Assembly (NCBI GenBank): GCA_000004985.1 | Contig: GG738847.1 | Reading direction: 5' to 3' (one strand) | DNA: 64,000 nt | From: Naegleria gruberi | Lineage: Eukaryota | Part shown: positions 7,156-50,961 of the stretch, piece by piece | How positions within the stretch are numbered: the first letter of the stretch is position 1 | Layout: every line of letters begins with the position of its first letter | Program-made: the position numbers and the translations under genes | The notes under the pieces: generated by a model | What the model was told of the DNA's origin: nothing | Seen by the model: only the letters and a program-made list of their open reading frames with translations | Database searches by the model: none

Positions 7156-8260
7156 ATGAGCACTACCAGCAACATTATACCTAATCTTACAACAGATACA
7201 ACAACAACAGGAACTTCATCACCACAATTAACTGTCCCAAATAGCAGTGGCACACAGTAAGTTTATGACACATTATTTTGGAAAGCAATATTGATTCATA
7301 TTTTCAATAGTACTTCGGAATTTTCACCTTCTGTTGCACCAGGAACAACCGTTATTAATCAGAGAGGATTTGATTCAAGATCGACTTCAAGTAGTTTTAA
7401 TCAATTTTTTGGAGGTGATGATGATAGTATAGCATCGGATGAGGATGAAAACGATATTCTTCTTCCTTTCAGAAATGCTGTTGTTTATAGTAGAACTGAT
7501 AATCATCAAAGGCATTCAAAGAATGTCTTTGAATTTATTGTAATATTGTTATGTCTTGTTCCGACTACAATATTTTCAGTTTCAGCATCGAGTGTCTATG
7601 TAATGATAGATTCATTTGTGAGTGAATATGCACCAAATAATGAAAAATCACTCACTAACTTTCTACAGGCACAATTTTTGTCTGTAATTGTGATTATCAC
7701 ATTTATAGAGTTTGTCAAATTTTTGCTAGTTCTGGTAATTTCAGTACTTTTTGCATTTGTGGTAAAGGTAGGTTATTTGAAAAGCAAAAGGAGTATTTAT
7801 TTCAATTATTATTTCAAAGGTCTACACTTTGGATAGTCATCTTACTGGAGGAGTGAAGAAGAATCACAAATTTTTCCAATATTTTCATGAGAATTTGACA
7901 AATAATCCTTTTTGTTGCTTAATAGGACTCTCTTGTTGTGTATTGACAGGTTACATCACTTTTAATATTGGACTAACTTATTCCATTATTTCACTATTCA
8001 TCTCTAATATTACTCCAGAATTCTCCCATCTCACTAATATTAAGATTGCTACACTCATTAATGTTTTGGATTGGATTTTATTCATTTTCTATTTCCTTGT
8101 CTACTTTAAACTCCAACAAAAGCAAAAAGCTCTTCATGAGCATAACACTGAGAGTGAAGATGAATACTATGACAGTGCTGGTGAACAGAATGTTTTTGAA
8201 TCCATCACCAATACTTTCACTTCAAGCAACAGAGCACCTTCCTCATCCGATAATATTTAA
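7156..8260 (+). CDS. Multi-pass transmembrane protein with three exons: 7156..7256, 7311..7767 and 7820..8260.
   Basis: The ATG at 7156 follows an A/T-rich leader. The GTAAGT...AG introns 7257..7310 and 7768..7819 keep the frame. Several hydrophobic helices are visible (VFEFIVILLCLVPTTIFSV, FLSVIVIITFIEFVKFLLVLVISVLFAFVV, CCLIGLSCCVLTGYITF, ILFIFYFLVYF). Confidence 0.5.
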
Positions 8261-8263
8261 AAA

Positions 8264-8803
8264 ATGCCTAAAGACCAAACAAGACCACACCAACAACAAT
8301 ACAGAAGTAGTGATTCGGGATCTCGTTATCAACCATATAATAACAATAACGTACAACAAAAAACATCCAACCCTAAAAAGGTGGTATCACAAGATAGTAA
8401 TAGGAATACATCAGATAAAAAAATTAATAATTTACCATCAACAAATAGTGGAAAGAAGATAACCAATTTTGAACAACAACCAAATCTTGTAAATAATAAT
8501 TCGGAAAATATTTATCAATCACAAAGAGAAAGAAATACCAGTAAATATGGTAAATCGAACGGTCAATCGACATCTGATGATGAGTTCTCCATTCCTTCAG
8601 TTGAGGAAGATGAAAACTTACAATTAATGAAAAGTCTGGGCTTGCCAACATCATTTGATACTACACATGAAAAACATGTTGCAGGAAAAGCAAATAATCT
8701 GAGTGGAGTTAAAATTACAACTAAACGAAAGGTAAAACAAGTAATGAACCTTAAAGATAAACCAGTCCATACTCACCAATTCACTAATAAACCAAGATAT
8801 TAG
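8264..8803 (+). CDS. Low-complexity N/S/Q/K-rich ORF of 179 aa. It is in the same frame as the upstream membrane-protein ORF and separated from it by a single TAA. It is either a C-terminal extension (readthrough or indel) or a separate small gene.
   Basis: A 540-nt stop-free ORF in AT-rich DNA is very unlikely to be noncoding. Its ATG lies 3 nt after the upstream stop and in the identical frame. Confidence 0.35.
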   Translation: MPKDQTRPHQQQYRSSDSGSRYQPYNNNNVQQKTSNPKKVVSQDSNRNTSDKKINNLPSTNSGKKITNFEQQPNLVNNNSENIYQSQRERNTSKYGKSNGQSTSDDEFSIPSVEEDENLQLMKSLGLPTSFDTTHEKHVAGKANNLSGVKITTKRKVKQVMNLKDKPVHTHQFTNKPRY

Positions 8804-14584: not shown

Positions 14585-16060
14585 ATGAAAAGACTTAAAT
14601 CCTCTCTACTCACAAAATCGTCTAAAAAATCGAGTTATTGTTTATTGGAGAATAGAAGCAAACCAAACAAAATTCATGTAATTGGTGGTGTATTACGATT
14701 CCAGTCTATTGATAATAAGAAAACCAATTCCGAACATGATATTGATAAAATCGTTGTAAAACAACATGTTTCATGGTTTGCCCGTGGTGAGAATAATAAG
14801 CTTTCAAAATTAAATATCGAACAAGTGAGAAATATTGATAATATTAAACAAGACAATAACCATCAATCAATAACATTGAACAATCAATCAAAATTTAATT
14901 ATTTATTCAATCATTGGAAGAAGAGAATGATCAGTGTTTTTCTACCAAAGAATTATCCACTCTCAGTCTCTAGTAATTATATTAATTATTGTAAATGGCA
15001 AGCATTGCAATATACAGCTGGAAGTTTTTCAGGAGTATTAACAATGCAATCATTATTGCATGCAGCCGGAATAACCTCACAATTGGCATTAGGAGGAAAT
15101 GAGTACTTTCTTGCTTTTTTAGGAGGTGCTTTAGCTTGGGTAATTAAAGATGGACTTGGTCAATTAGGAGGTATATTATTTGCAAGTAAGGTCAATACTA
15201 ATTTTGATGCAGATCCAAAATTTTGGAGAATGGGAGGAGAATATGCTCTCGTAGCAAGTGCGTTATTAGAAGTAACCACACCAATTACTGGACCATCCTG
15301 GTTTATTGCTCAAGCCAGTTTGGCAAATATTGGAAAGAATGTAAGCTGTTTTGCAGCTAGTGCAACTAGAGCTGCCATGAATCAGTCATTTGCCAAATCT
15401 GACAATTTGGCTGATGTGACTGCTAAGGCAACAAGTCAAGCCCTGGCTTGCTCTCTAATTGGTACTACTTTGGGAATTTTTGTGAGTTCTGCACTTTCAC
15501 TTGGAACTCAATTCGTGTTTGCAAAAGTGTTTCCAATATTTTGCGTACTTTCTGTGATTCAATTATTTTCATTGTACAAGGCTGTTTCAAATGTAAAACT
15601 GAAAGTTTTGAATAAGCAAAGATTTTTGATAGCTTGCTCTCAATACTTGAAGGATAGAGCTGTTTTGGATCCATCAAAGGTTTCTGAAAGAGAAAAATTT
15701 GTTTTGCCATTTTTGGATTCCTATCAGAGCAAAGTGAAAATCAATACAAATATTAAGCAAATTGAGAGTTTAGTTCAAAATTATCATTACAAACAATTGA
15801 TATCAAACAGATTCACAATTATTCAAGATAAGGATTTCATTCATGTATTGTTTGAGGAAAAGGCTCAAACAATGGATGTATTCAAGGCCATGTTTATTGT
15901 TACCAAGATTTTGAGTTCAAATGAAGAAACTGTAAATCATAATAATTTGAATGTTGAACTAGAAACCTTCATGCTCTTGATGAAAGATCAAGGATGGTCC
16001 GTAGACCACGATTTTGTTGAAGATAACAGCCACATGAGAATCTCAATCAAGACTGAATAA
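14585..16060 (+). CDS. DUF647/RUS-family (root UVB sensitive / C16orf58-like) membrane protein of 491 aa.
   Basis: Single ORF with AAAAATG context. The central block YTAGSFSGVLTMQSLLHAAGI...LGGALAWVIKDGLGQLGGILFASK...WRMGGEYALVASALLEVTTP is characteristic of DUF647 proteins. This was recognised by eye only. Confidence 0.45.
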   Translation: MKRLKSSLLTKSSKKSSYCLLENRSKPNKIHVIGGVLRFQSIDNKKTNSEHDIDKIVVKQHVSWFARGENNKLSKLNIEQVRNIDNIKQDNNHQSITLNNQSKFNYLFNHWKKRMISVFLPKNYPLSVSSNYINYCKWQALQYTAGSFSGVLTMQSLLHAAGITSQLALGGNEYFLAFLGGALAWVIKDGLGQLGGILFASKVNTNFDADPKFWRMGGEYALVASALLEVTTPITGPSWFIAQASLANIGKNVSCFAASATRAAMNQSFAKSDNLADVTAKATSQALACSLIGTTLGIFVSSALSLGTQFVFAKVFPIFCVLSVIQLFSLYKAVSNVKLKVLNKQRFLIACSQYLKDRAVLDPSKVSEREKFVLPFLDSYQSKVKINTNIKQIESLVQNYHYKQLISNRFTIIQDKDFIHVLFEEKAQTMDVFKAMFIVTKILSSNEETVNHNNLNVELETFMLLMKDQGWSVDHDFVEDNSHMRISIKTE

Positions 16061-17401: not shown

Positions 17402-17662
17402 TGTGTTTGGCATTTTTTCATCAAACTTCCTTTCATCTTATCTTGCAGCAAATTCCGATATTGTCATCATCAACATATCCCGAAAATTAATCATGATGTT
17501 GAGAGAGTGAAGACAACAAAGCGTTGAGAGAAATAACTATTGAAATAAATACACAACATAATATTGTAAACAAAATACAAATAATAATAAAATTTAATAT
17601 TAGGATATATTAAATAATGGGAGAACTTGGTTGAATAATTTTGAAAGTGTAACACTGAGAAA

Positions 17663-21011: not shown

Positions 21012-22792
21012 ATGCAAACACGACCAACCTTCACACCAAACAAGGGAGTTGCCAACCTCCTTGTTTTATGTAGCACAATGATGCTCCTCGTCATTATGCA
21101 AAGCATGGCGCCTGTCCACTCACATATGTGTGTCTTTAATCCTAGACAGAGAGGAGGTTTGAATATTTCAGACTTTGGTGATCCGACCTGTTTTAAATTT
21201 AAAGGTCCTTGTGGTTCTTTACCAAGTGGTCCAGGTTTGTATTTTGCAAATTATCTTTAACATTTAAATATTTTCTATTTATTTTTTGGATTTGAATAGT
21301 CCAAGCAACTTTCCAAAGAGGTAAAACCTATAATATCGACCTTCAACAAAATTTGAATCACTACAGTGTTGGTCATCCTGGATGGCTTGACGTTTCAGTT
21401 GCCTCAGGTGAAAATCCTGATGACTCTCAATTCACTGTTCAAAGTGTTTTGACTGATTATTTCCCTGTCAGACAATGGACAAGAACCAATTTATCAATTC
21501 CATTATATTTGAATCCACAAGGTACAACTGGTAGACATGTTATCAGAGTTCGTTACAATCCAAACAAGCCAACTGAACCAATTTTCCATCAATGCATTGA
21601 TATCATGATTACTCCTGCATCATCTAAGAGAATTGTTATGGCTAGCCATATTGAAAAGAAGCAAGCAGTTGAATTCCATCCAGAAGGTCAAAAATTCTTT
21701 GCCAAGACTAGATCTATCAAAGCCACTCAAGAAATGGTCTTTGGTGTCGTTCAAAATCAAGATAGCTCTGCATCTTTGGTTGGTATCGATATCTTGTCTG
21801 GTCAAGTTGTTCCTGTATTGAATTGGAATGACCTATCAGTTAGTGATTCTCAATTATACTCTTCTGGTGCTCCAAGAAAAGTTTCTGGTAGAATTATTAA
21901 CTCTGTTACTGCCGTAGATAATTCCAACAAGAGACTCTTCTACTTGTTCAGTGATGATTCGTCTCCAATGCAAACTGATTTGCAAAATTCTCCAGCCAAC
22001 AAAGTCTTTGTCTATGAACATGCTAAACAATCCTATGATATTCTCAAGATTAACATTACCAATGTTCAATTCAATGCTACTGTCGTCATTCCTTCATTGG
22101 TCATTTCTGGATTGTTCTATGAATCCAATACTAATACCCTCTATGCTACTGCATTGTTTGCCCCAGATGTCAATAATAAGTATACTTATTATTTGGGTGT
22201 TTTCAGTTTGACTGCTAATGGAGCATACTTGTCACCAAAACTTGTTGCCTTGTCAGCTCCTTTGGACTCGTATGTTGATTACTTGTGGACTTCATATGAT
22301 GCCTCAACCAAGACTGTTTCAGTTTTGATTAGACATGAAGATGAACCAGTTAAATTGCCACAAAAATTATTCTCAGTTGTTTTGGGTAGTTCTGCCTCCA
22401 TTCAATCCATTGATTTGGATCCAACTCAATTCGTTTACTCTTCAATTCACAGTTATAAGGCTCAATTATTTGCCTTCTCACCAGGTAATGCTCAATCAAG
22501 TCTTCCTTCATCTGGATCAAATACTTGGAGTATGATTGGCGTTGATAGAGCTTCAGCTAATCAAGAAGAAATTAATCAAATGTATGATTATCAAAATTAT
22601 TTGGGAGGTGGAATTACTAGTGCAGTTTCTAATACTGGAAGAGGAATTTACAATATTATGCATTCTACTGATGGCAAGGATCAAATTCTTGTTCGTGTTG
22701 CTCTTAAGGCTATTCCAATTGGTCCAATCAGTGAAATTGCACACATTCCAATTCAAACTAAGGTTTACAATTGGGCAAGAATGGATATTTAA
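21012..22792 (+). CDS. Secreted protein of about 571 aa whose predicted mature N-terminus is His1 (HMCVFNPRQRGG). It is a candidate LPMO-like/histidine-brace copper protein fused to a large beta-rich C-terminal region. Exons are 21012..21234 and 21300..22792.
   Basis: ATG in AAAAAAATG context. The signal peptide LLVLCSTMMLLVIMQSMAPVHS has an AXA-type cleavage site before HM. The GTTTGT...AG intron 21235..21299 joins the frames in phase 1. The pattern H-x3-V-x2-P-x2-R matches the N-termini of AA10/AA15 LPMOs (HGYVxSPxSR). Confidence 0.5.
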
Positions 22793-22868
22793 ATTCTTTT
22801 TGAAATTTAAACTCGAGTTTACAATAATAAATATTAAAATATTAAAAAATTTATTAAATATTAAAAAA

Positions 22869-24047
22869 ATGAGTCAACAGCAACAACCTATTATTTTGAG
22901 AGGACACATTGATGAAGTGACAAGTGTTTATTTTGAAAAATCTACCTCCAACCTATCATCATCATCTTTATTCAGTGGAGATTTAAAGGGAAATTTCAAT
23001 ATTTTCAATTTGGAAACAAGGAGAGTGAAACAATCCATTCCGAACCATCACAATGGTTGCATTCTCGGATTTTATCAAGATGATCATTATTTATATTCAC
23101 AGGGAAGGGAGGGATGTATTAAACGATTGGATTTGAATCAAATTAACATTTCATCATCGTCACCATCTTCATCATCTTTGGAATGGTATTATAATTCGAT
23201 ATTTTCATTTTGTAAATTTGCTCCGTGTCGGATTGGATCGAGTTTGAGTTTCTTTGTGCCGTGTGATAAGGAACAAGTGATGCTGTTGGATTGTAGAGAG
23301 AAACAAACTCTGGATGGATATAAAAGCTCTCTAATGATTGCCCCTCCAGTGAGTCAGTACAGCTCATTGTCAGCTTTTGGAATGTTGACTGGAATGGTTT
23401 GTATTGACCATTCTCAGTATTTATTGTGTTCTTATGAAGGTGGAGTAATTGTAGAGTTTGATGTGAGGAAATTGAGTGAGCCAACTTTTGTGTTGGAGAA
23501 TTTTGAAAAACAAGAAAATTTGGAGGGAGAACAACCAAAATTTTGTAATTATAGAGATTTGATTGGTGTGAGGCATATTTATGATTTACACAATGCTCAG
23601 GATCCAATAATTGCCATTAATTATCAATCAGAATTGGATAAAATCATTATTGGAGCTAGCTCAACCCAGATTCATGTAATGGATCGTGCTAATATTCCAA
23701 CAAACTCTTCAATCGATACCAATAATAATCATTCCTTTACAGGAGAACAAACAAGTTATTCATTTGAAATGAAGAGTGGAGGAGTAAATGATATCTCATG
23801 CTACAATATGAGTGGAGTGGCTAGTACAAGTCAAATGTCCAGATTAATGTTTGCTGGTTGTTGGGATGGCAGTGTTAGGGTTTTTGACTTGAAAAGGAAA
23901 AAGAAGCTGGCAGTGTACAAGTATCATGAAAATGCAATTCGTTCTCTCGATTTTAAGGAGAACAATAAGGAAATTTTACTTGCTGCTGGATGTAAAGACT
24001 CAAAGATATCGATTTGGAATGTGAATTTTGAAACAAAAAGGAAATAA
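22869..24047 (+). CDS. GNB1L: WD40-repeat protein, a GNB1L (G-protein beta subunit-like 1) orthologue of 392 aa.
   Basis: ILRGHIDEVTSVYF...LFSGDLKGNFNIFNLETRRVK...AGCWDGSVRVFDLKRKKKLAVYKYHENAIRSLDF...LLAAGCKDSKISIWNV parallel the human GNB1L blocks (ILRGTQSPVHALHF / LLFSGSQSGLVHIWSLQTRRAV / AGWDHRIRVFHW...LAVLAFHSAAVQCVAF / LLAAGSKDQRISLWSL). The ATG is at 22869, and the track start at 22536 is a spurious upstream extension. Confidence 0.7.
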   Translation: MSQQQQPIILRGHIDEVTSVYFEKSTSNLSSSSLFSGDLKGNFNIFNLETRRVKQSIPNHHNGCILGFYQDDHYLYSQGREGCIKRLDLNQINISSSSPSSSSLEWYYNSIFSFCKFAPCRIGSSLSFFVPCDKEQVMLLDCREKQTLDGYKSSLMIAPPVSQYSSLSAFGMLTGMVCIDHSQYLLCSYEGGVIVEFDVRKLSEPTFVLENFEKQENLEGEQPKFCNYRDLIGVRHIYDLHNAQDPIIAINYQSELDKIIIGASSTQIHVMDRANIPTNSSIDTNNNHSFTGEQTSYSFEMKSGGVNDISCYNMSGVASTSQMSRLMFAGCWDGSVRVFDLKRKKKLAVYKYHENAIRSLDFKENNKEILLAAGCKDSKISIWNVNFETKRK

Positions 24048-38435: not shown

Positions 38436-41400
38436 TTATTCAAAAAGGTTGTCCACATCTGCCTCTTCATGATTCTCTTCCTCAGTGCTACTACTGGCTA
38501 GAACTGTTGGCTTAGATGGTTCCAATGCTGTTTGAGAGGAAGCATCTTCCATCATACTGAAATTCAAAAAGTGATGAGGACGATGGACTTCATGATAAAA
38601 TTCCTTAGGAACTCCAAGAGTTACGCCATATTCCATATTTTCAGTATGACCATAGCCCATAAAGAAGTAATTCCAAGAACCTTCGTCAGGAACCATAAAG
38701 AATCCCATATAAGATTCTGACAAAATAATTTGGACTCCCTCATAGAAAGCAGCATGATTGAATCCTTGTGGTTCATCACTGAAAATATCCTTATTCTTTC
38801 TACCCCAGTCAAAACCTTCTGGTGTTAACTTGTGTGCAGTAAGATTGCATGAACCAGGAGTAATTTGACAGGTAATAGTAATGGTCTTTTCACCATCCCA
38901 AGATTTGTGTTGGTTCATAACTTTGGAGTGGAATGTGACATCTTGAGGGGTGAGTCTGGTATGACTTGCAGAAGCAGGTTGAGTGTGAATCCAACCAAGT
39001 GGTTCCAATCCTGACAAAATGTCATGTTCTGGTAATTGTTTTGGAACAGCTACAGTCTTATGTGATCCTAATTGAGGAACCAAAACGATACAGTGGATTT
39101 CTTTAACCTTAGGATTGTCTTCAGGAGATTTACCATAACAATAACCCATTACTTGAGTTCTCAAATCTGAAATAGAAATAAACTTCTTCAAAATATTCAT
39201 TGGAAGTACAAAGTCATAGGCGCTCTCAGCAATATCTTCTTGTTCAATGAAAATACGTTTTGTTCTGATTTGAAGATTAGGAGCAGCAATAGCTCTCATT
39301 CTCCAATCGGTCTTACTACTGAATGTTTCTTGTTCGTATGGTGTATTGGTAACAGTAATAATCTCTTCACCATATTGGTTAATCTTTTTGGTTGTGATTG
39401 TGGTGAGTTGGGTGGCTTCTTTTGCCTCTTTCTCAATTTCAGCAATTTGTTGTTGTTGAACTGATGGTGGTGCAATATCCATACCAAGAATAATATCACG
39501 AACTTCTGATTGAGTCAATGATGTAACCTTGACATTGTTTCGTTTACCATAATTTGACAAGATTAAATCTTTCAGAGCAACTTCAACTTTCACCCAAGTT
39601 TGATCGTCCAAAGTTGGCCAAACATGGTGAGGTTGTGTGATGGTTGTCTTGCTTGGTCTTAAAATCATCTTTGTCTTATCAGGGTTAACATCAAAGGCAC
39701 GTAAGGTCAAGATCAATCTGAGGAAGGCTGTGTATGAGTTAATTGATTCACGCCAATCATCATAAATATTGAATACCAACATTTTTGGCTCAGTTGCCTT
39801 CATTACCAAGTCATTGAATTTGTCAATCTTGAGAATTGATTGGAATGGTAATTTCAATTCACTTCCCTTGATAACAATATTAGGGAAGTCCAACAAGTGA
39901 ACTTCTAATGGATCAAGCAAACCCTTTCTAGTAACAATAATTTGTTTTGGTTGTTCTTCAACTGGAAGTGATCTAATCAAACTTGTAACTTCTTCAGCAG
40001 TCTTCCATTTGGCCAATTGGCCTTTACGCTTTTGGCCAGCCCATACACTTGTGTGAATAATCTTCAAATACAATTGACCAGTCTTTGGATTGAAAATATA
40101 AATAGCACCATTTACAGGTTTTGAAGTAGAGTTACCTTCACTAGTTTGGTGAATAACTACACGATAAACATCTGAGTCATCAACAAACCAAATGGTTTGA
40201 TTACTAAACAATTCACCATAGTTTTGACTGTTCAAATATGGTTCAGTTGGTTCAGAAGAGTACAATTGCAAACCCTTTCTGATACGTTCTCTGAGGACAT
40301 AAAGAGCAGGATTGGCTTTCATAATTTTAGCCATAGCCTTACGAATGAGAGGCTTGGATCCGTGGAACCAACATCCATAAGCTGACATGTAGTTATAAGC
40401 TAAATCAATACCGATCAAGACACCAGTTGGAGATGGATAGAATGAAAGATTATCATTAGAATATTCCAAGAACTTGGATCTAGAATATCTTTCAATATCA
40501 TGAGAATCAAAATCACCCCATCTCAATTGAACGTCAATCCAATACTTATTAGAACTAGAGTCATAGGTATCGTTTGGATCTGTCAATAGAGAAGGTTTAG
40601 TAATTTGCCACTTGTATGCAGCAAACAATAAAACATCTGCACAAGAAGAGTTCATCTTGTAAGACTTTCTAGGATGGATTGTTTCCTTTTGTACTGTTTG
40701 AATTTGAAGAGTATCAACTTGTTGATCGAATACTTGACAAAGATCCCAAACTACACTTTCATGGATCTTTTGCCACAAGTGAGCTCTGAAGATTTGAATC
40801 AATGAAATCTTGAGGGTTGGAATCTTACCATGCATGAAAATACCTGTCAAATCCAATTGAACTTGGAAACCAACATAGACATTGGCACGGTTAATAGTTG
40901 GAGACCACCACAAGGTAAATCTTCTGTTTGGAATTTGGTTCAAACCTGAACGCTGAGCATTTGTAAGCTTTTTAAACTTCATACTTTCTTCAAACCCACT
41001 TGCACGTTCCCAGAAAAGACCTTCCCAAGTAACAAAGTAAGTACCCTTGAACAAACTGTGTTCCAAAATACATTCTACACCACCAAGGGCTTGAATCATG
41101 TCAGTTCTATAGTTATTCAATGACCAAAGTTTACCATCATGTCTAGTTTGAGTCCACCAGAAAGGATTTTGTTTAAGTACTTGATAAGCCTTGAATTCAT
41201 TTCTGACTCTCCAGCCCTTATCATAGGCGAGAATGTGTCTGTCCTTTTGGAAAAGTGTATTAATTCTAGGAATACCTCTATCCCAAGAATCTTCCAAGTC
41301 TTCAAGTCCTAACTTTCTATTCTTTTCAAGAGCTTCTCTTCTCTTGGCTGCATATTCTGCCCAAACACGTTGAGAGTCAACAAATTCTGATTGCCAAGGT

Positions 41401-44400
41401 TGGAGATATCTATAAAGATTAGGAATGAGTTGACCTTCATCATGACTCATACCAGAACGGAAGTGAGTTATACCTGTATCAGTTTGCTTGGAATATTTGA
41501 GATCAGATTGTGGAATGAGTACGTGACCCATAGAAAGCATACCTAAACCACCCAATTCTTTTGGAGTATAGAATACAACAGGAGGGAATCTGGTAGGCAT
41601 CTTTGAGTTGAGGCCAATCTTGATTCTTGTTTGAATCTTATTTTCACATTTTACGAGAAGGTCAAGCATTTCTTGTGTATTAACAACAGCTTCACGGAAA
41701 TAAGTCATCAATCCAATAACAGCTGTGTTCCACTTGTTAACAATCTTGGTAAAGGTTGTAGAACCAGAAGCCATAAGAATCATTCTAATACGATTTTCAA
41801 ACTTTCTCATAGATTGTTCACTAACCTTCAGGTAGGCTTGGGCTGTTCTTTCCTTTGTGATTTCATTTCTCAAATCCCAAACACCATCCTTTGAGGTAAC
41901 AAATTGTTGAGAAGGAGCACGAATCTTTGGTAATACTCTAATTTCAAATCCAGACATACTGAATAACAAGTTAGGATTATCCTTACTGTAGACAGAGACA
42001 AATGAATCTTGCCATTTCAAAGTAGTGAGAGATTTTGGCAATCTATTAGTAATTTCCCAGAAAACAGCTCTTCCAAGGTTAACATCGTGTTTCATAAGTC
42101 TCATACGACCATCCCTTGGCCAACATTTCTTATTGTTGTATCCAACAATATTTTCATTGTTTGGATCAGGATGTTCAGTGAGGTATTTTTGAATAAGTTC
42201 ACGAGCCTCTTCATGAGTAAATTTGAAAAGTATATGGAACTCATCGATATATCTCGAGTATAATCTTATTGGATTGTTTGATTCTGTTTGTAAGTCCTTG
42301 TATGTAAGGAAAATATTTGGTTCTCTTGCAGGACCAGCTATTTCACTTGCTCTATCCAATCCAAGCATTAAAATATCCAAAATGAGACAATAGTATTGAG
42401 AAATAAAAGATGAAAATTGAAGACCTCTGATCAAACCATACATGTTCACGTGACTCATATCTTTGAATGTTAGAGTAACGTTGTTCTTGGCACACATATA
42501 ATCAGCAATATTACTGTCAACCACAAGTCTCAATAAACGGTTCAATAGAATTGGATCTATCTTTTCCCAAAGTTTATCAAACTTGGCTTGCATCATTACA
42601 ACACATTCACCATTTGAAGTTTCCCAAACATCTGACAGATTGTTAATAGCTTGGCACCACTTGTAAATAAGAAGTGGAGGTGGTTCAGAGTCGGATGGTT
42701 TAATCCAGTTAGGGAATAATCCTCTCTTGTCAGCTTCATACCACAAATATTGATCCAAGTAAGCATCGGTAATCTTTTCCATTGGTTCAACATCATAGAC
42801 AGGAATGAGATGGCTGTACAAATCCATATACTCGATAGACACTTCTTTGAAAGTTCTTTGTAAGAGTAAATGCTTCTTGATTCTAGTCAAGGCCTCATGT
42901 GGATTGTTATAAGCTTGTTCAATTAGACCAAGTTCTTCACGTTGTGAGTGGTTCAATCTACTCTTTACACTGTAAGCTTCTTTCAATCTTTCCAAAGCTA
43001 GAATAAGTAATTTGGTATCGTGCTTGTACGAAAGAGGAGGGAAAGGAATTGGTGCAAACTTTCTGCTTTCCAACCAGTGAACTGTGGCTGTATAGATAGC
43101 AACAGCTTCTTCTGAAGTAACATATGGACCATCTTTCATATAGTTATGTTGTCTCTCTTGTTCATCCTTCAGGTAGAGACGAGTGAGTCTTCCAAGATTC
43201 TTCTTACTGACAGTCTTATCAACAGTTACACCACGTTTAATACGTTCTCTATTATAGTGGGCAACATTGGTCCACCAGTCAGCCTTGGACTTTACATATC
43301 TCAATATCATATTTTCAATTGGAGAAGGAAGACCTGGAACTTTCCAAGGAATATTGGCCTTCCAACAACGCCAAGCTTCACTCAAGTGTTGCAAGACAAC
43401 TCTAGCCTTATTTTCTCTAATACCTTCAGGCATCATATCAAGAATATCATGCAAAACAGCTGCTCTTAACTCAAGATCAAAGTGAGATTCAACACGTTGT
43501 TTTGTGACAGATTTGGCTGTACCCTTATTTTGTCTTCCTTCAAATTGTTTGGCAAGCAAATTACCTAACCATCTTTCAAGAAGTGGTACAATACCACGCA
43601 AGAAGAATAACCAAACCCTCCAAGCAGGAGCCCAGAAACCACATCCAGGACCCTTATCAACTCCACCAGAATTAAATCTATAATAAATTAAGTGTTTCAA
43701 ATCTTTACACATTCTGATTTGTCTCATAAGTCTGTACTTGTAACGATACATGCCTGTAAGTTGGCCTACATGAGTGAAAATGTAATGCAAACCATCAGCA
43801 AGTTGGTATGCTTCAACATTACCCATTCTATATTGTACATGTGAGTCAACAACAAGTTTTGTCAATCTTAAAATTTCACGACAAAGGTGGAAAGCATTAC
43901 CGAATCTAGATTTTTTACGTTCCTTAGTTGTAAGTGTCTTGATTGGTTTCAAGTTAAAGTTATAATCCAAGTGCAAATAATTTAAATTTTTTCTGTGAAT
44001 TAATAAATTGAGCATATTGAAACCTTGTCTACAAACTTGTAAACCAGCTTCAACCCAATCAATCTTAGTAGTTTTGAAAAATTTGGTATTTTTGAGGGAT
44101 TTAAAGAGATTTCTCTTTGTTTGAGCCTTAGAAGGTTGATGATGTAATTCGTTCAATATGTAACATTTGAGAAGTTTTTGATAACTGACTCTAACCTTGA
44201 CAGGATGTTCAGGATTAGCATGTTCACGATACCATGATTTTACGAGAGGAATATCTTGTGCTCTTTTCATCTTTCCTGAACGATGACAGAATGGACTTGG
44301 AGCCCAATACAAATCAATACCTTGTTGAGTATACGGAGTCCAAAGTGGTTCTTCATCTAAAAGAGGAGAAACATCATCTGGAAGTACAAATACATCTCCA

Positions 44401-45706
44401 TCTCCACCAATATCTTCATATTCAAATTCATTATGTTCTTCGTCATATTGAGATTTGTATGATGAAATTGGGTTAATAGAGTGATGGAATTCAAAAACAT
44501 CTGCATCCGGATCTTCTGATTTGTTGAATGTTAAAAGTGGATGTCTATAACTGGAAAGTTCTACCTTTCTTGGTCTGTCATTATAGAGATGAGGGAATGC
44601 AACCTTGTATTCAGTTCTTACTTTTTGTCTGATAATAATTTTGTGAATATCATTAAATTCATTCCAATCCTCATCCTCTGCATCAACATCTCTGAAAAGT
44701 GGTTCAAACTTTGGTCCACCAGGGAGTGCCATATTTAATGCCTTACTAGTTTTGAATGCTTCTTTATCGAATAAATAGAAATAATTTGGATCTACAATGT
44801 CACTTAACAATCTTTCAGATAATCTGTAAAGGTTAGTCAGGATTGGTAAATTGAGTCTCCACTTCTTGTAACTACTTCCATTTACAAAGTTATTAATGTG
44901 TTCAATGAGAGGCTTATTTTGATAAAGCCAATCAAGTACAGCTAATCTTCTTCTGGATCAAGAGTCATTCTGATAGCTTCTTGAGGTTCTACTCCAAGAA
45001 TATTGCCACCATAATCAATTGGTGGTTCTTCGTCATCAAATGGTGGAAATCTCATTCTTCTGAAATGTTTTCTGTCCTTCTTTTCTCTTCTCATTAAAAT
45101 CCACATGGTTGCCCATTGTGCAAGGTAAACAGGTTCTATTACTCTAGGAATTTCATTCACAAAAGTAATGGCACCAGTGACATGATACAATACTTCAACT
45201 TCTCTCTTTTCTTCCCAAGGCATTGGCATATTTTCCAAAAGTTTGAGTACTGCATGTGGAATGTATTTTAATGCTCCAAGATAAACTCTCTTATCTCTTC
45301 TAAATTTTCTATTAGACATATCACCATGTTCCTTGATAATTTCTCTTAAAAGTTCTGGAGGCTCAATCTTGTTAATATTCTTCGCATTCTTTGATAATCC
45401 ACTTGATCCATTTGTTTGATTGATATTTTTAAATCTTCTCTTGTTAAATTTAATCCAAGCTTTTGCCTTTTGTTCTGTTGCTGTTGATGAAGATGTTGAT
45501 GATGAATTCTGAGTATTTACTCCTGGTGGCAAATTAGGAGTAGTACCAGTTGTTGATGGTTGTATTTTAATTCCAGGTGGAAGCTTTACTCCAGGAGGTA
45601 AATTAGGACGGCCTGTGCTACTACCTCTACCAAGAAGATTTTCTTGATTATTATCTTCCTCGTCATCATCATCAAACATCCGAATATGATCGTTGTTTGG
45701 TATCAT
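38436..45706 (-). CDS. PRPF8: Pre-mRNA-processing factor 8 (Prp8, U5 snRNP core), about 2380 aa. It is encoded as two ORFs (45706..44942 and 44810..38436) that abut with a -1 frame offset.
   Basis: Near-identity to human PRPF8 over the whole length ([29 protein letters not shown]..., [54 protein letters not shown], the RNase H-like and Jab1/MPN C-terminus). The N-terminal ORF ends ...RMTLDPEED, then TAG. The other frame continues [12 protein letters not shown]..., matching human ...LDPEEDAPVLDWFYDHQPL, so the gap is 1 nt short of two codons. This is a frameshift, not an intron. Confidence 0.9.
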
Positions 45707-46273
45707 TTTGTTGTTGAATTAAATAACAAGGCTCGTTTTTAAAATTTCCTCTCTACAAAAACAAGCACAATGCTTTTTAATTTTTTTTAAATATTTTTAT
45801 ATTTAATTTTTGATTAAACGCTTTTTCTTCACCTTCAATGTGTATTGATGCAATTTCGACTGGTCTGTTGAAGCTTGAAGAATAATTATGAAGAGTTATT
45901 TCCGATAGAATTTGAAACGTTGAAACTTCCCTGTGAAATTGGATTCCCCTTTGATGGATCCCTTTTTTTTGGAATGTTAAATGTATCTTTCTTAGTTTCT
46001 TCGACCATTGAATAGGCAGTTGATCAAGCTAATTTAATGCTTTTTGCAAACAGAATAAGGATAAACAATAAGGTGGTTGCTATTTTATTTTTTACAGTAA
46101 TAAGGGCTATTATTTACATTGATCAGAATATATTCGAATGCTCCTCGAATGTAGGAGTAGAATAAGTTAACTGATCATTCTCTCGTTTAATTAAACAATC
46201 TCAAAATATTTGATCCTGTTTCATCTCGCATGCTATTATAATTTGTAATTTTCAATTCAATTGAAACAACAAT

Positions 46274-46516
46274 TTAAGGAAGGGCAAATTCATCATCCAT
46301 TAGAAAATCCCTATCTTCTTTCGACTCTACTATTTTACTACTCCAATTCTGTACCATTGATTGAAGTCGTTGTGTATTGTCCATTATTGTGGAGAGAAAA
46401 TCATTGTCTCCAATAATTGAGAAGCCCTCATCCCTACAATCGGATAAATAATAAGAGTCTTCATCGAGTTTTGGTGATGATTTGCTGTCTCTCTTGCCGT
46501 AGTCAGTTGCTCTCAT
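46274..46516 (-). CDS. Small acidic hypothetical protein of about 80 aa.
   Basis: The ATG at about 46516 is in AAAAAAACAAATCAATATG context. The sequence is MRATDYGKRDSKSSPKLDEDSYYLSDCRDEGFSIIGDNDFL...DEFALP. No family was recognised, and it could be an exon of a larger gene. Confidence 0.3.
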   Translation of the reverse strand: MRATDYGKRDSKSSPKLDEDSYYLSDCRDEGFSIIGDNDFLSTIMDNTQRLQSMVQNWSSKIVESKEDRDFLMDDEFALP

Positions 46517-46756
46517 ATTGATTTGTTTTTTTAATGTTTGTTTTTCCAACTCAAAGCCTGGTTCATTGAAATCTTTAAAGAGTTTTCCATATGAATGAAT
46601 TTATTTACATTTTTACAATTTTGGCGCCAAGTGCAAATTGTACAAAGAAGCGGGAGTTGCCAATTCAAGTATTGAATTTACTTTCAACAGGTAGACATGT
46701 GACTAGTTCAATAACTTTATATTTTTTATATACAAATAAATACACTTATTTACAAG

Positions 46757-47926
46757 TTAAATAGCTGTTTTACAAATAGGACATTGATTCCTCATTCTCA
46801 ATGCTTGGAAAACACAATCACGATGATATTTGTGTAAACATGTTGGTAGAGTACAAACTACATCCCCAGATTCATACTTGCTCAAACAAATACAACAAGA
46901 TTCTTCTAAAAGACTTCTTCCTAAATTTTCAGAGCAATAAGGCACAGATGAATCTTGTTCATTGTTTGCACTTGAATTAGCTCCATTGGTAGGAACTCCA
47001 GTGTACAGCTCTGAATCATCATTGGAATGTTCTACAGCTGAAAGCGGAGGTATTCTGTATACTGTTAAACGTGAAAGAGTGTTTTCTGAAACACCTCTAG
47101 GTTCAGCATGATGCCCATCTAATTGTAAAAGAGTATCATAATCATTTGCATTAAAATCTCTATCAATCATCATTAATCTCAATGAATTGACATCCATTCC
47201 ACGGCTCTGTAATAATTCTAAAAGTCGTTGATTTCTTTCAGAAATTTCCTCTCCTTCCCAATCATCATGTTCTCCTTCATAACGAGCAAGTCCATACTTT
47301 AACATGTAATATTTGAGATTTCTGATCAAGGTGGATCTATTATGATTTAAACATAATGCGAGAAGTCTCTTTCCCCACAAACACGTACAACAAAAAGCAA
47401 TGCATGAAAACAAAATTGCATTCGGAATTGTGAGTGTGTAGAGTAAAACAGTTCGAAAACTGTTTGCGTTTGAAGTATCAGAAGAATTTTCCTGTCCACT
47501 ATCGGATGATGATGAGGATGGTTTAACAAAAGCTGCCACAAGTATAAAGTGAATAGCAATAATTATGATAAAAAGAATCGATATTACCATTAACACCACA
47601 ATTCTCCTTCTTAAATTCGGATTTAGATTTGAAAATGGGAATGGAGATCTTGTTTCTGTAGCTTGTTCTGGTGTATCATTAATAGCTGGTGTTGGTGTAT
47701 CGATATTATTAGAATTATTATTACTACTTCTATTCCATGAGAAGAATTGTCGGAGTGATTGAAATCTACTTGAATTGTTGTTATTATTATTTGCGACAAA
47801 AGATTGATATTCATCTTCTTGGGTGTGATTATTATTATCTTGTTCATCATCAGATTCTGTGAGTTGTACTCGAACTCCACGATAGGGATGAACAGGATCA
47901 GCCACACCACCGTTATTTGAGGACAT
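46757..47926 (-). CDS. Transmembrane RING-H2 E3 ubiquitin ligase (389 aa).
   Basis: The C-terminal RING-H2 is CCICLSKYESGDVVCTLPTCLHKYHRDCVFQALRMRNQCPICK. Two hydrophobic helices are present (IVVLMVISILFIIIIAIHFILVAAF; LLYTLTIPNAILFSCIAFCCTCLW). The N-terminal region is Asn-rich. Confidence 0.7.
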   Translation of the reverse strand: MSSNNGGVADPVHPYRGVRVQLTESDDEQDNNNHTQEDEYQSFVANNNNNNSSRFQSLRQFFSWNRSSNNNSNNIDTPTPAINDTPEQATETRSPFPFSNLNPNLRRRIVVLMVISILFIIIIAIHFILVAAFVKPSSSSSDSGQENSSDTSNANSFRTVLLYTLTIPNAILFSCIAFCCTCLWGKRLLALCLNHNRSTLIRNLKYYMLKYGLARYEGEHDDWEGEEISERNQRLLELLQSRGMDVNSLRLMMIDRDFNANDYDTLLQLDGHHAEPRGVSENTLSRLTVYRIPPLSAVEHSNDDSELYTGVPTNGANSSANNEQDSSVPYCSENLGRSLLEESCCICLSKYESGDVVCTLPTCLHKYHRDCVFQALRMRNQCPICKTAI

Positions 47927-48541
47927 TTTTTTGTATTGGAAAGAACTTGCTGATTGGTTGTTTGAAGATATTAATATTTAACGTGAGGTGACTACGATTG
48001 ACCTAGATGGAATCAAACAATGAGTAAAACAACTTGTTTTGATACCAAATGAAACAAAATTTTAAAGATTTTTGAAAGAAAAGTGTTGTCACTTCCATTA
48101 CTCAAAATTTATTCCACAAAACTTAGAAATTTATCCTTATTCACCATTGATTCAAAGTTGTTTGAATTTTTATACTTGAAACAAATGAAATCGAGTAATA
48201 AGTAAAAATAAAACAAGAGGCGATTCTTTCTTGTTTGGATTAGTTTCTAACTTTTTCGAGGATTTCAACAAAAACCAACGTTGAACTTTTTCCACTCAAG
48301 ATTAATTAAAATGCATTTTCAATGATGTAAATTATGAAGGATAGATCTGGAAGACCTGCCTCTTCTGTACAACTAGTAGCAATAGTGATCCCATAAGACG
48401 ATTTGCAATTGTGGCAGAATTCCACCAGAAGGAATTCAATACATCTTCATAAAGAATGAATAAACCATAGTACCAAAAGGCACATCATTGAAAATACTTT
48501 AATTAGCTTGTTTAAAATGAATAATTAAAAACTTTGAAAAA

Positions 48542-49135: not shown

Positions 49136-49281
49136 TCTGATTCATAAAATGTCATCACATCTAGTTCAATTATTTCATCATCCACATAATTGTTTCAATT
49201 AATCATTTGAGAATTTGTGAAATTTAGAATTAAATAATTTGTAAATAATTTTTTTTTAGGATTTTATCAAAATTTAGAAAT

Positions 49282-50487
49282 TTAGAGTTCGTCGTGATCG
49301 GCCTTCTTTTCTTCGACTGGCTTTTCTTCTTGCTTCTTCTTTTCTTCTTCTTCTCTCTTCTTTCTTTCTTCTTCTTCCTTGGCCTTCTTGGCAGATTCAA
49401 TCTTATCGAAAGCTTCCTTTTCCTTCTTGGCACGTTCAACAACCTTTTGAACAGCTTCGTTGGCAACATCCAAATCATCAGTAACCATAATGTTATCAAA
49501 GATAGTACCAGCCTTAACTTGCCAGATTTCAATACCAGCATATTCAATATCGTTATACTTGGCAACATCTTCATCGAAAGCATAATCTGGGTTAGCAATG
49601 AGTGGAGCAGACCATTCACCCTTGTAAGCTGGGTTAGGGATCATTCTAGCCTTCCATTCACCCTTGTATTCTGGGTTTGGAATTTGAGGAGCTTCCCAGG
49701 CACCATCTTCTTCTTCGTCCCAGTTTTCTGGCTTCTTGGCTTCTGGATCAGAAATATACTTTGGTTGATCCCAGTCTTCTGGCTTCTTATCAGTTTCATC
49801 AACAATTTCCTTTTCATCAACCCAATCAGCTGGCTTCTTGGCTTGTGGATCTGGAATATCCTTTGGTGGCAAAAAGTCCCAATCATCATACAAACTTCCG
49901 CTTTCCTTCTTTTGACCATCAATTTGGACTTCATAGGTAGCATCAGGATTGATAATAGCAGTGTAAATGTGAGTGAGTTGATCAGTTTCACATGGAACAG
50001 TCTTCTTCCACAACAAGTTCTTACCCTTGTAGTTGAAGATGAAGTGAATTCTTCTAGTAGCAGAACCACAGATATCAGGACCGAACATAATTCTATATTC
50101 AGTGTCATCCTTGAAGTTTTCTTGGCTAGCACCAGTTGGCAAGAACTTTAAGTAAGCACCACCACAGTCAATGCTTTGTGGATGTTTAGTGGAGAATTGA
50201 ATAACGAGTGGCTTATCACCTCTAGAGACGGCTGGTTTATCGAATCTAGCAGAGATTGAGTAGTGTCTAGCATCTTGACCAGTTTGAAGACCCTTGTCTT
50301 CTTCAGCATCACCGTACCATTCACCGGCAGTGTGTTTCCATTCACCATAGTTATCCTTAGACTTGCTCTTAACCCATCTGGCTTCATATCCAGCATGGAA
50401 AGGTTCATAGAAGAAAGTTTCAGCTGAAACTATAGCAGCTACGCTCAACAAGAGAGCAGCTAACACGATATGTTTAGTTGTAAACAT
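49282..50487 (-). CDS. CALR: Calreticulin (401 aa) with a signal peptide and a C-terminal HDEL ER-retention signal.
   Basis: Signal peptide MFTTKHIVLAALLLSVAAIVSA. Calreticulin family motifs KHEQNIDCGGGYVKL-like (SIDCGGAYLKFLP) and IMFGPDICG are present. The P-domain repeats are PxxIxDPxAxKPEDWDE x3 and GEWxxPxIxNPxYK x3. The acidic C-tail ends HDEL. Confidence 0.9.
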   Translation of the reverse strand: MFTTKHIVLAALLLSVAAIVSAETFFYEPFHAGYEARWVKSKSKDNYGEWKHTAGEWYGDAEEDKGLQTGQDARHYSISARFDKPAVSRGDKPLVIQFSTKHPQSIDCGGAYLKFLPTGASQENFKDDTEYRIMFGPDICGSATRRIHFIFNYKGKNLLWKKTVPCETDQLTHIYTAIINPDATYEVQIDGQKKESGSLYDDWDFLPPKDIPDPQAKKPADWVDEKEIVDETDKKPEDWDQPKYISDPEAKKPENWDEEEDGAWEAPQIPNPEYKGEWKARMIPNPAYKGEWSAPLIANPDYAFDEDVAKYNDIEYAGIEIWQVKAGTIFDNIMVTDDLDVANEAVQKVVERAKKEKEAFDKIESAKKAKEEEERKKREEEEKKKQEEKPVEEKKADHDEL

Positions 50488-50961
50488 TTTTTTTGGCTGT
50501 TGTTTGTGATTGACGCGCTGTGGTGAAAAGCCTTGTAGAATTTATTGTGTTCCTGTGTGGCTTTAAGTTCCCGTTCTCCTTCTCTCTCTTGAACGAACGA
50601 TCTTGCATTAGAAAATGAAAGGGCAAACACGTGTTCGAGCTAACTTTGTTTGGGTAACAAGTTTACAAAACCATCTTCCGAGAGGTTATTCCGATATTTT
50701 GCTGCTTACATGTTATCCACACAATAGCCAATATCAATAAAATGTTTCAATTCAATATCTATGTATTGTCAGATTGAAGAAGTTGCTACTAATAATAACT
50801 ATAAACTTATGATTTATTTGAACAATTAGCCAGATGATCTTCTGCTTTTTTCATAATTTGGTTGATAACCAGCATCCGAACAAGCTCTGTTGTTTGAGTC
50901 ATTGAAAATGATATCCTAAAGTTAATTGATTAATTGATAATGGACAACAATGGGATTGAAA

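Follow-up and report, generated by a model that had tools for sequence, protein, structure and literature searches.

The gene for Prp8, an essential, single-chain core protein of the spliceosome, lies on the minus strand of the Naegleria gruberi NEG-M reference DNA that we analysed (the window, a single stretch of 64,000 nt), and its coding sequence is interrupted there: an N-terminal open reading frame ends at a stop codon, and the remainder of the protein is encoded in another frame. The question raised by this locus is whether the interruption belongs to the cell, in the form of a lesion, an intron, a recoding site or a split protein, or instead to the reference sequence. The features at issue are these:

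38436..45706, minus strand: the complete Prp8 gene, 7271 nt in the window and 7272 nt (2423 aa) with one G restored
44944..44945, minus strand: the missing base, a coding-strand G absent between T44945 (the end of GAT) and T44944 (the start of TAG)
44942..44944, minus strand: the premature TAG, which in the intact version is the TA of GTA (Val) together with the G of GCT (Ala)

Read on the minus strand from 44962, the break is ctt gat cca gaa gaa gat tag ctg tac ttg att ggc. From its ATG at 45706 the N-terminal Prp8 ORF (45706..44942) extends over 254 codons to ...RMTLDPEED, where it meets the TAG at 44944-44942. A TGA (44960-44958) stands directly before the C-terminal frame, which stays open from 44957 to a stop at 38436 (2173 codons), and the onward reading of Prp8 in this second frame is GCT GTA CTT GAT TGG. 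The two open frames overlap by 16 nt (44957-44942, TCCAGAAGAAGATTAG), and since they are offset by one position, the event that joins them is confined to that overlap. From the GAT (Asp) to the GTA (Val) there are 5 nt in the window, whereas homologues need 6. The comparison indicates that exactly one nucleotide is absent from the window's Prp8 at this Asp-Val junction, which reads GATTAGCT without the G and GATGTAGCT with it; the TAG at 44944-44942 arises from the absent G, and seen from the plus strand the missing base at 44944..44945 is a C. The original prediction had described an N-terminal ORF ending in EED followed by a TAG at 44942-44944, a continuation in the other frame from GCT GTA CTT GAT TGG, and 5 rather than 6 nt between the EED and VLDW codons. 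The first of these is borne out by the minus-strand read and its translation, the second by translation, and the third by the two residues that homologues keep at this position.

That spacing is conserved among Prp8 proteins. We aligned 13 Prp8 fragments, drawn from oomycetes, fungi, plants, apicomplexans, Perkinsus, fish, a nematode and a myxozoan; after the LDxEE motif, exactly two residues separate the invariant Asp from the Val in every one of the 13. The same spacing holds for 269 of 276 fetched proteins with a locatable motif. The human PRPF8 sequence given in the original prediction agrees with two mammalian PRPF8 entries, both of which give ELDPEEDAPVLDWFYD. A protein-guided scan of JGI metagenomes retrieved a further 80 Prp8 loci, from distant eukaryotes only and at most 71% identical; a single tblastn HSP runs over the site in every one of them, and in 79 of the 80 it is gap-free there.

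Adding the G to the window gives an unbroken Prp8 ORF of 7272 nt and 2423 aa with zero internal stops, in which the junction is ...LDPEEDVAVLDW... and Val-Ala are residues 255-256. The remainder of the gene had been predicted to be intact, as this stop-free ORF confirms; the continuous length expected beforehand, about 2380 aa, has to be revised to 2423 aa. Judged by its encoded domains, the gene is Prp8, with the full series from PRO8NT to PROCT in the usual order (Pfam E-values from 1e-9 to 4e-234, every score above gathering). The N-terminal piece matches PRO8NT over profile positions 5-143 of 152, so that the break falls within this domain; PROCN, RRM_4, U5_2-snRNA_bdg, U6-snRNA_bdg, PRP8_domainIV, JAB and PROCT are all in the C-terminal piece. 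In the G-containing version PRO8NT is in one piece (profile positions 5-151 of 152). Set beside Prp8/PRPF8, the core U5 snRNP protein, of distant eukaryotes, the N-terminal third of the Naegleria protein is 55-71% identical, and with the G restored the gene shows nothing unusual. Its first 115 residues are lineage-specific low-complexity sequence; a low-complexity N-terminus is common among Prp8 proteins. The same 64-kb window also encodes a SNRNP27-domain protein (8264..8803, plus strand; Pfam E = 2.7e-08), and the presence of two U4/U6.U5 tri-snRNP components in one window is probably a coincidence.

Another key observation is that the missing base is present in a close relative. The Illumina-derived MEGAHIT contig k127_522887 (ENA ERZ929261, run ERR1078381, PRJEB11402; 3366 nt; here L001), found through its near-identical copy of the neighbouring RING-finger gene, is 99.1% identical to window positions 48124..44742, with 7 SNPs and 5 indels between them. 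Relative to the window it carries a single additional G at the junction (GAAGAT-TAGCTGTA in the window against GAAGATGTAGCTGTA in L001), and the placement of the gap is unambiguous because the inserted G sits between two Ts. The junction codons of L001 are GAT GTA GCT GTA (D-V-A-V), and its Prp8 ORF, which has the same start as in the window, continues for 322 codons through the junction to the end of the contig. The original prediction of a one-nucleotide deletion is matched by this strain of about 99% identity, which has exactly one more base, the G, at the predicted junction. One extra nucleotide that restores the ORF had also been named as the test of the idea; it is seen here in another strain rather than in NEG-M reads, and this contig, being from a different strain or haplotype that diverges from NEG-M by 0.2-1%, shows the form of the intact gene and not the content of NEG-M DNA. 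An exact DNA pattern scan of JGI metagenomes for the junction gave zero matches.

The metagenome also provides a measure of how this lineage varies. Five of its contigs (L001, L002, L003, L085 and L086), from an N. gruberi strain, align with 19,675 nt of the window and are 98.6-99.8% identical to it; over this length NEG-M and the metagenome strain differ by 33 SNPs and 20 indels. Among the indels outside long ORFs, 13 of 14 are not multiples of 3; inside long ORFs, five of six are 3 nt, and the Prp8 G alone breaks a frame. Since the coding indels other than the Prp8 G are all 3 nt, we infer that variation in the lineage is efficiently purged of frameshifts. Over the 4.5 kb of Prp8 coding sequence that could be compared (45706-44742 and 41997-38436), the sole other difference is a synonymous A/G at 44763, and few sequences of the window are as constrained as Prp8. 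Against this background, a real frameshift allele at Prp8 would be an outlier; a consensus error would be indifferent to selection.

Several ways in which the break could be compatible with a working gene, or could be real, have to be weighed. One is splicing: an unusual or very short spliceosomal intron could take out the stop and bring the two frames together. N. gruberi does have introns, and a 52-nt GT-AG intron joins two frames in the same window (7768..7819); that the genome has working introns such as this one we counted in favour of an intact Prp8. Accordingly, every frame-restoring, stop-free removal with GT/GC-AG or AT-AC ends was enumerated at the Prp8 junction. Those below 65 nt are all of the AT-AC type (11, 23, 47 and 59 nt), and each takes out aligned conserved residues; the removals of 11 and 23 nt are far too short for introns. 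The shortest GC-AG removals are 65 nt, and the shortest GT-AG removal, of 68 nt (45009..44942), would cost 22 conserved residues. Both flanks of the junction align gap-free with homologues, and the sister strain needs no splicing at the site. We reject an intron at the junction, as every frame-restoring removal would delete conserved residues; the original prediction had likewise argued against an intron, in agreement with the lack of any GT/GC-AG removal under 65 nt in the enumeration, and we attach practically no weight to this reading. Only marginally more credible is that the break is functional, through programmed recoding (a -1 or +2 frameshift, or correction at the transcript level) or through the production of two polypeptides of 254 and 2098 aa. 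Yeast Prp8 has been reported to tolerate being divided into two polypeptides at certain positions, and Euplotes is known to shift frame at stop codons; our own analysis yielded zero positive pointers to such an arrangement. On the other hand, the strain of about 99% identity has a plain, unbroken Prp8 ORF, so that the shift is not a conserved recoding signal, and when the frame break was tested for the conservation expected of programmed recoding, all 80 of the other Prp8 loci proved to be continuous at the site. The only feature shared with programmed ribosomal frameshifting is an ORF that resumes in another frame beside a stop. Unlike sites of -1 frameshifting, which combine an X XXY YYZ heptamer with downstream structure, Prp8 has neither a heptamer nor significant structure: no X_XXY_YYZ was found in the overlap TCCAGAAGAAGATTAG or in the 30 nt upstream, where the original prediction had also seen no slippery heptamer, and the 120 nt downstream fold unremarkably (-21.7 kcal/mol, z = -1.45; 20 of 200 shuffles are at least as stable). 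A -1 programmed frameshift was rejected for these two reasons. In contrast to +1 frameshifting at stop codons (Euplotes, RF2, antizyme), the +1 frame of Prp8, AGC TGT ACT TGA, is closed after three codons, and the protein carries on in the -1/+2 frame, not the +1 frame; this candidate too was rejected. So was transcriptional slippage, there being no homopolymer at the shift site (none with at least 5 A/T or at least 4 G/C within 60 nt). Furthermore, a two-piece protein whose second part starts at MALPGG would drop 71 highly conserved residues and cut through PRO8NT. It is very improbable that NEG-M Prp8 is without the G in every copy and nevertheless works, by -1/+2 recoding at GAU-UAG or by polypeptides that assemble in trans; if true, NEG-M would provide the first case in nature of a split or recoded Prp8. 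Recoding, a split protein and an intron are highly unlikely even when taken jointly.

A weightier alternative, although one that we consider unlikely, is a real and very recent 1-nt deletion in NEG-M Prp8, present either as a heterozygous null allele caught by the haploid consensus, its partner allele providing the function, or as a lesion fixed in the long-cultured, clonal laboratory strain and masked by a second copy. The deposited NEG-M sequence does carry the break, the pristine remainder of Prp8 fits a very recent lesion as well as it fits an error, and the site has no homopolymer and is hence an untypical context for an indel error. Naegleria is reported to be mainly a heterozygous diploid, with variation in ploidy (PMC9928731), so that a haploid consensus could have caught a real null allele. 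Heterozygous loss-of-function alleles of essential genes, caught in collapsed haploid assemblies of diploid or polyploid clonal organisms, share with this case one lesion, an otherwise intact gene and a host reported as diploid (PMC9928731); the difference is that the coding indels between the strains are otherwise all in-frame. Because the remaining five coding indels are all multiples of 3, frameshift alleles would be rare in the lineage, and a Prp8 with just one synonymous SNP over 4.5 kb must be under very strong constraint. The contig index has no entry for the 254-aa or the 2098-aa product in a second assembly, and nothing in the sequence examined pointed to a second Prp8 copy. We rejected a pseudogene or decaying gene: constraint is strong, the 7272 nt contain a single lesion, and the 4.5 kb compared show otherwise one synonymous SNP. 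A lesion that proved real in NEG-M would make Prp8 a minor curiosity, an essential gene with a null allele in a clonal laboratory strain. We favour the explanation that the NEG-M reference consensus drops one G of Prp8, most likely through a sequencing or assembly error, and this retains the order of the original prediction, which had ranked an assembly or sequencing indel above a recent lesion. The true sequence would most likely be GAT GTA GCT GTA (Asp-Val-Ala-Val), the G being carried by NEG-M DNA itself. Base-calling or consensus building in the draft assembly probably lost this G, leaving GAT TAG with a false stop and a change of frame, and the gene-model pipeline would then have produced EFC49815.1 and EFC49814.1 as two models. 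In the cell, Prp8 is most likely an ordinary single chain of 2423 residues, and no biological mechanism would be needed. Single-base indel errors that split genes in draft genomes have the same signature: one base gone from an otherwise perfect conserved ORF, fragments annotated as same-strand neighbours (EFC49815.1 and EFC49814.1), and an independent sequence of the species that has the base. There are also differences, in that the Prp8 site has no homopolymer and in that we infer the error with an independent sequence from another strain. The non-homopolymer context GATGTAGCT speaks against the error reading to the extent that this is not a classic indel-error site.

Both other ORF pairs of the window that might have been taken for frameshifts are explained otherwise, which leaves the Prp8 break isolated. 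One suspicious pair, 7291..7836 and 7829..8260, is accounted for by the 52-nt intron at 7768..7819 (plus strand; aag/gtaggt...ttcaaag/gtc), which joins the two ORFs in frame; together they look like one multi-pass membrane protein. The other, at 21353..24047 (plus strand), consists of two long same-strand ORFs in different frames with a 256-nt overlap, and we rejected it as a second frameshift since it most likely represents two adjacent genes. The WD40 protein of this pair probably starts with MSQQQQ near 22869, after the stop of the upstream ORF at 22792; that upstream ORF, of 479 aa, has no Pfam match.

Exact matches to N. gruberi proteins in the range EFC49806-EFC49817 were obtained for six complete ORFs of the window; because the window's ORFs are identical to GenBank proteins, the Prp8 break sits in the deposited NEG-M reference. 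The public annotation of the locus is as follows:

44942..45706, minus strand: N-terminal fragment, EFC49815.1 / XP_002682559.1 / D2V0Z6, NAEGRDRAFT_62470, 254 aa, "predicted protein"
38436..44732, minus strand: C-terminal fragment, EFC49814.1 / XP_002682558.1 / D2V0Z5, 2098 aa, "splicing factor Prp8"
44733..44941, minus strand: coding sequence outside both models, which with G44942 makes 70 codons, AVLDW...KALN

EFC49814.1 begins at the first in-frame ATG of the second frame, at 44732 (MALPGG). The stretch at 44733..44941 that precedes it is conserved and aligns gap-free with homologues, and the residues absent from both models number 71, that is, the 70 codons and the broken Val (2423 - 254 - 2098 = 71). 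One missing base has turned a single Prp8 gene into two public gene models. As a consequence, the N. gruberi Prp8 of GenBank, RefSeq, UniProt and EukProt is a protein of 2098 aa without its first 325 residues (D2V0Z5), beside which D2V0Z6 stands as an unexplained 254-aa "predicted protein". Comparisons of spliceosomes that use N. gruberi as the heterolobosean representative inherit both a spurious orphan gene and the shortened Prp8. The two models, EFC49815.1 and EFC49814.1, should be combined into one Prp8 of 2423 aa on the minus strand, 45706..38436. The biological importance of the locus is slight, since the break is most likely a one-base error in a draft reference; biologically there is nothing new, and the practical value, and the useful output of this analysis, is the correction of the annotation.

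The reference annotation may contain a further flawed gene model, EFC49597.1. At 14585..16060 (plus strand) the window has a complete 491-aa ORF with a UVB_sens_prot domain, identical on the ENA contig L003; EFC49597.1, its GenBank model, is marked "partial" and has only 261 aa.

We also noted the positions of other differences between NEG-M and the metagenome strain. In-frame 3-nt indels are found in the RING-finger gene (47783 and 47507), in a 924-aa EF-hand gene (37858 and 37326) and in a 159-aa ORF (35362). Small indels and SNPs are dense at 17474..17518, just upstream of the Aha1 gene; this cluster, outside any long ORF and close to where contig L003 ends, is probably a hypervariable intergenic region rich in T. 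A second metagenome contains a different Naegleria species, represented by a contig (ENA ERZ27315067, k141_2114324; L004) whose calreticulin gene is 86% DNA-identical to window positions 49280..50494 and has the same Mog1-domain neighbour as in the window.
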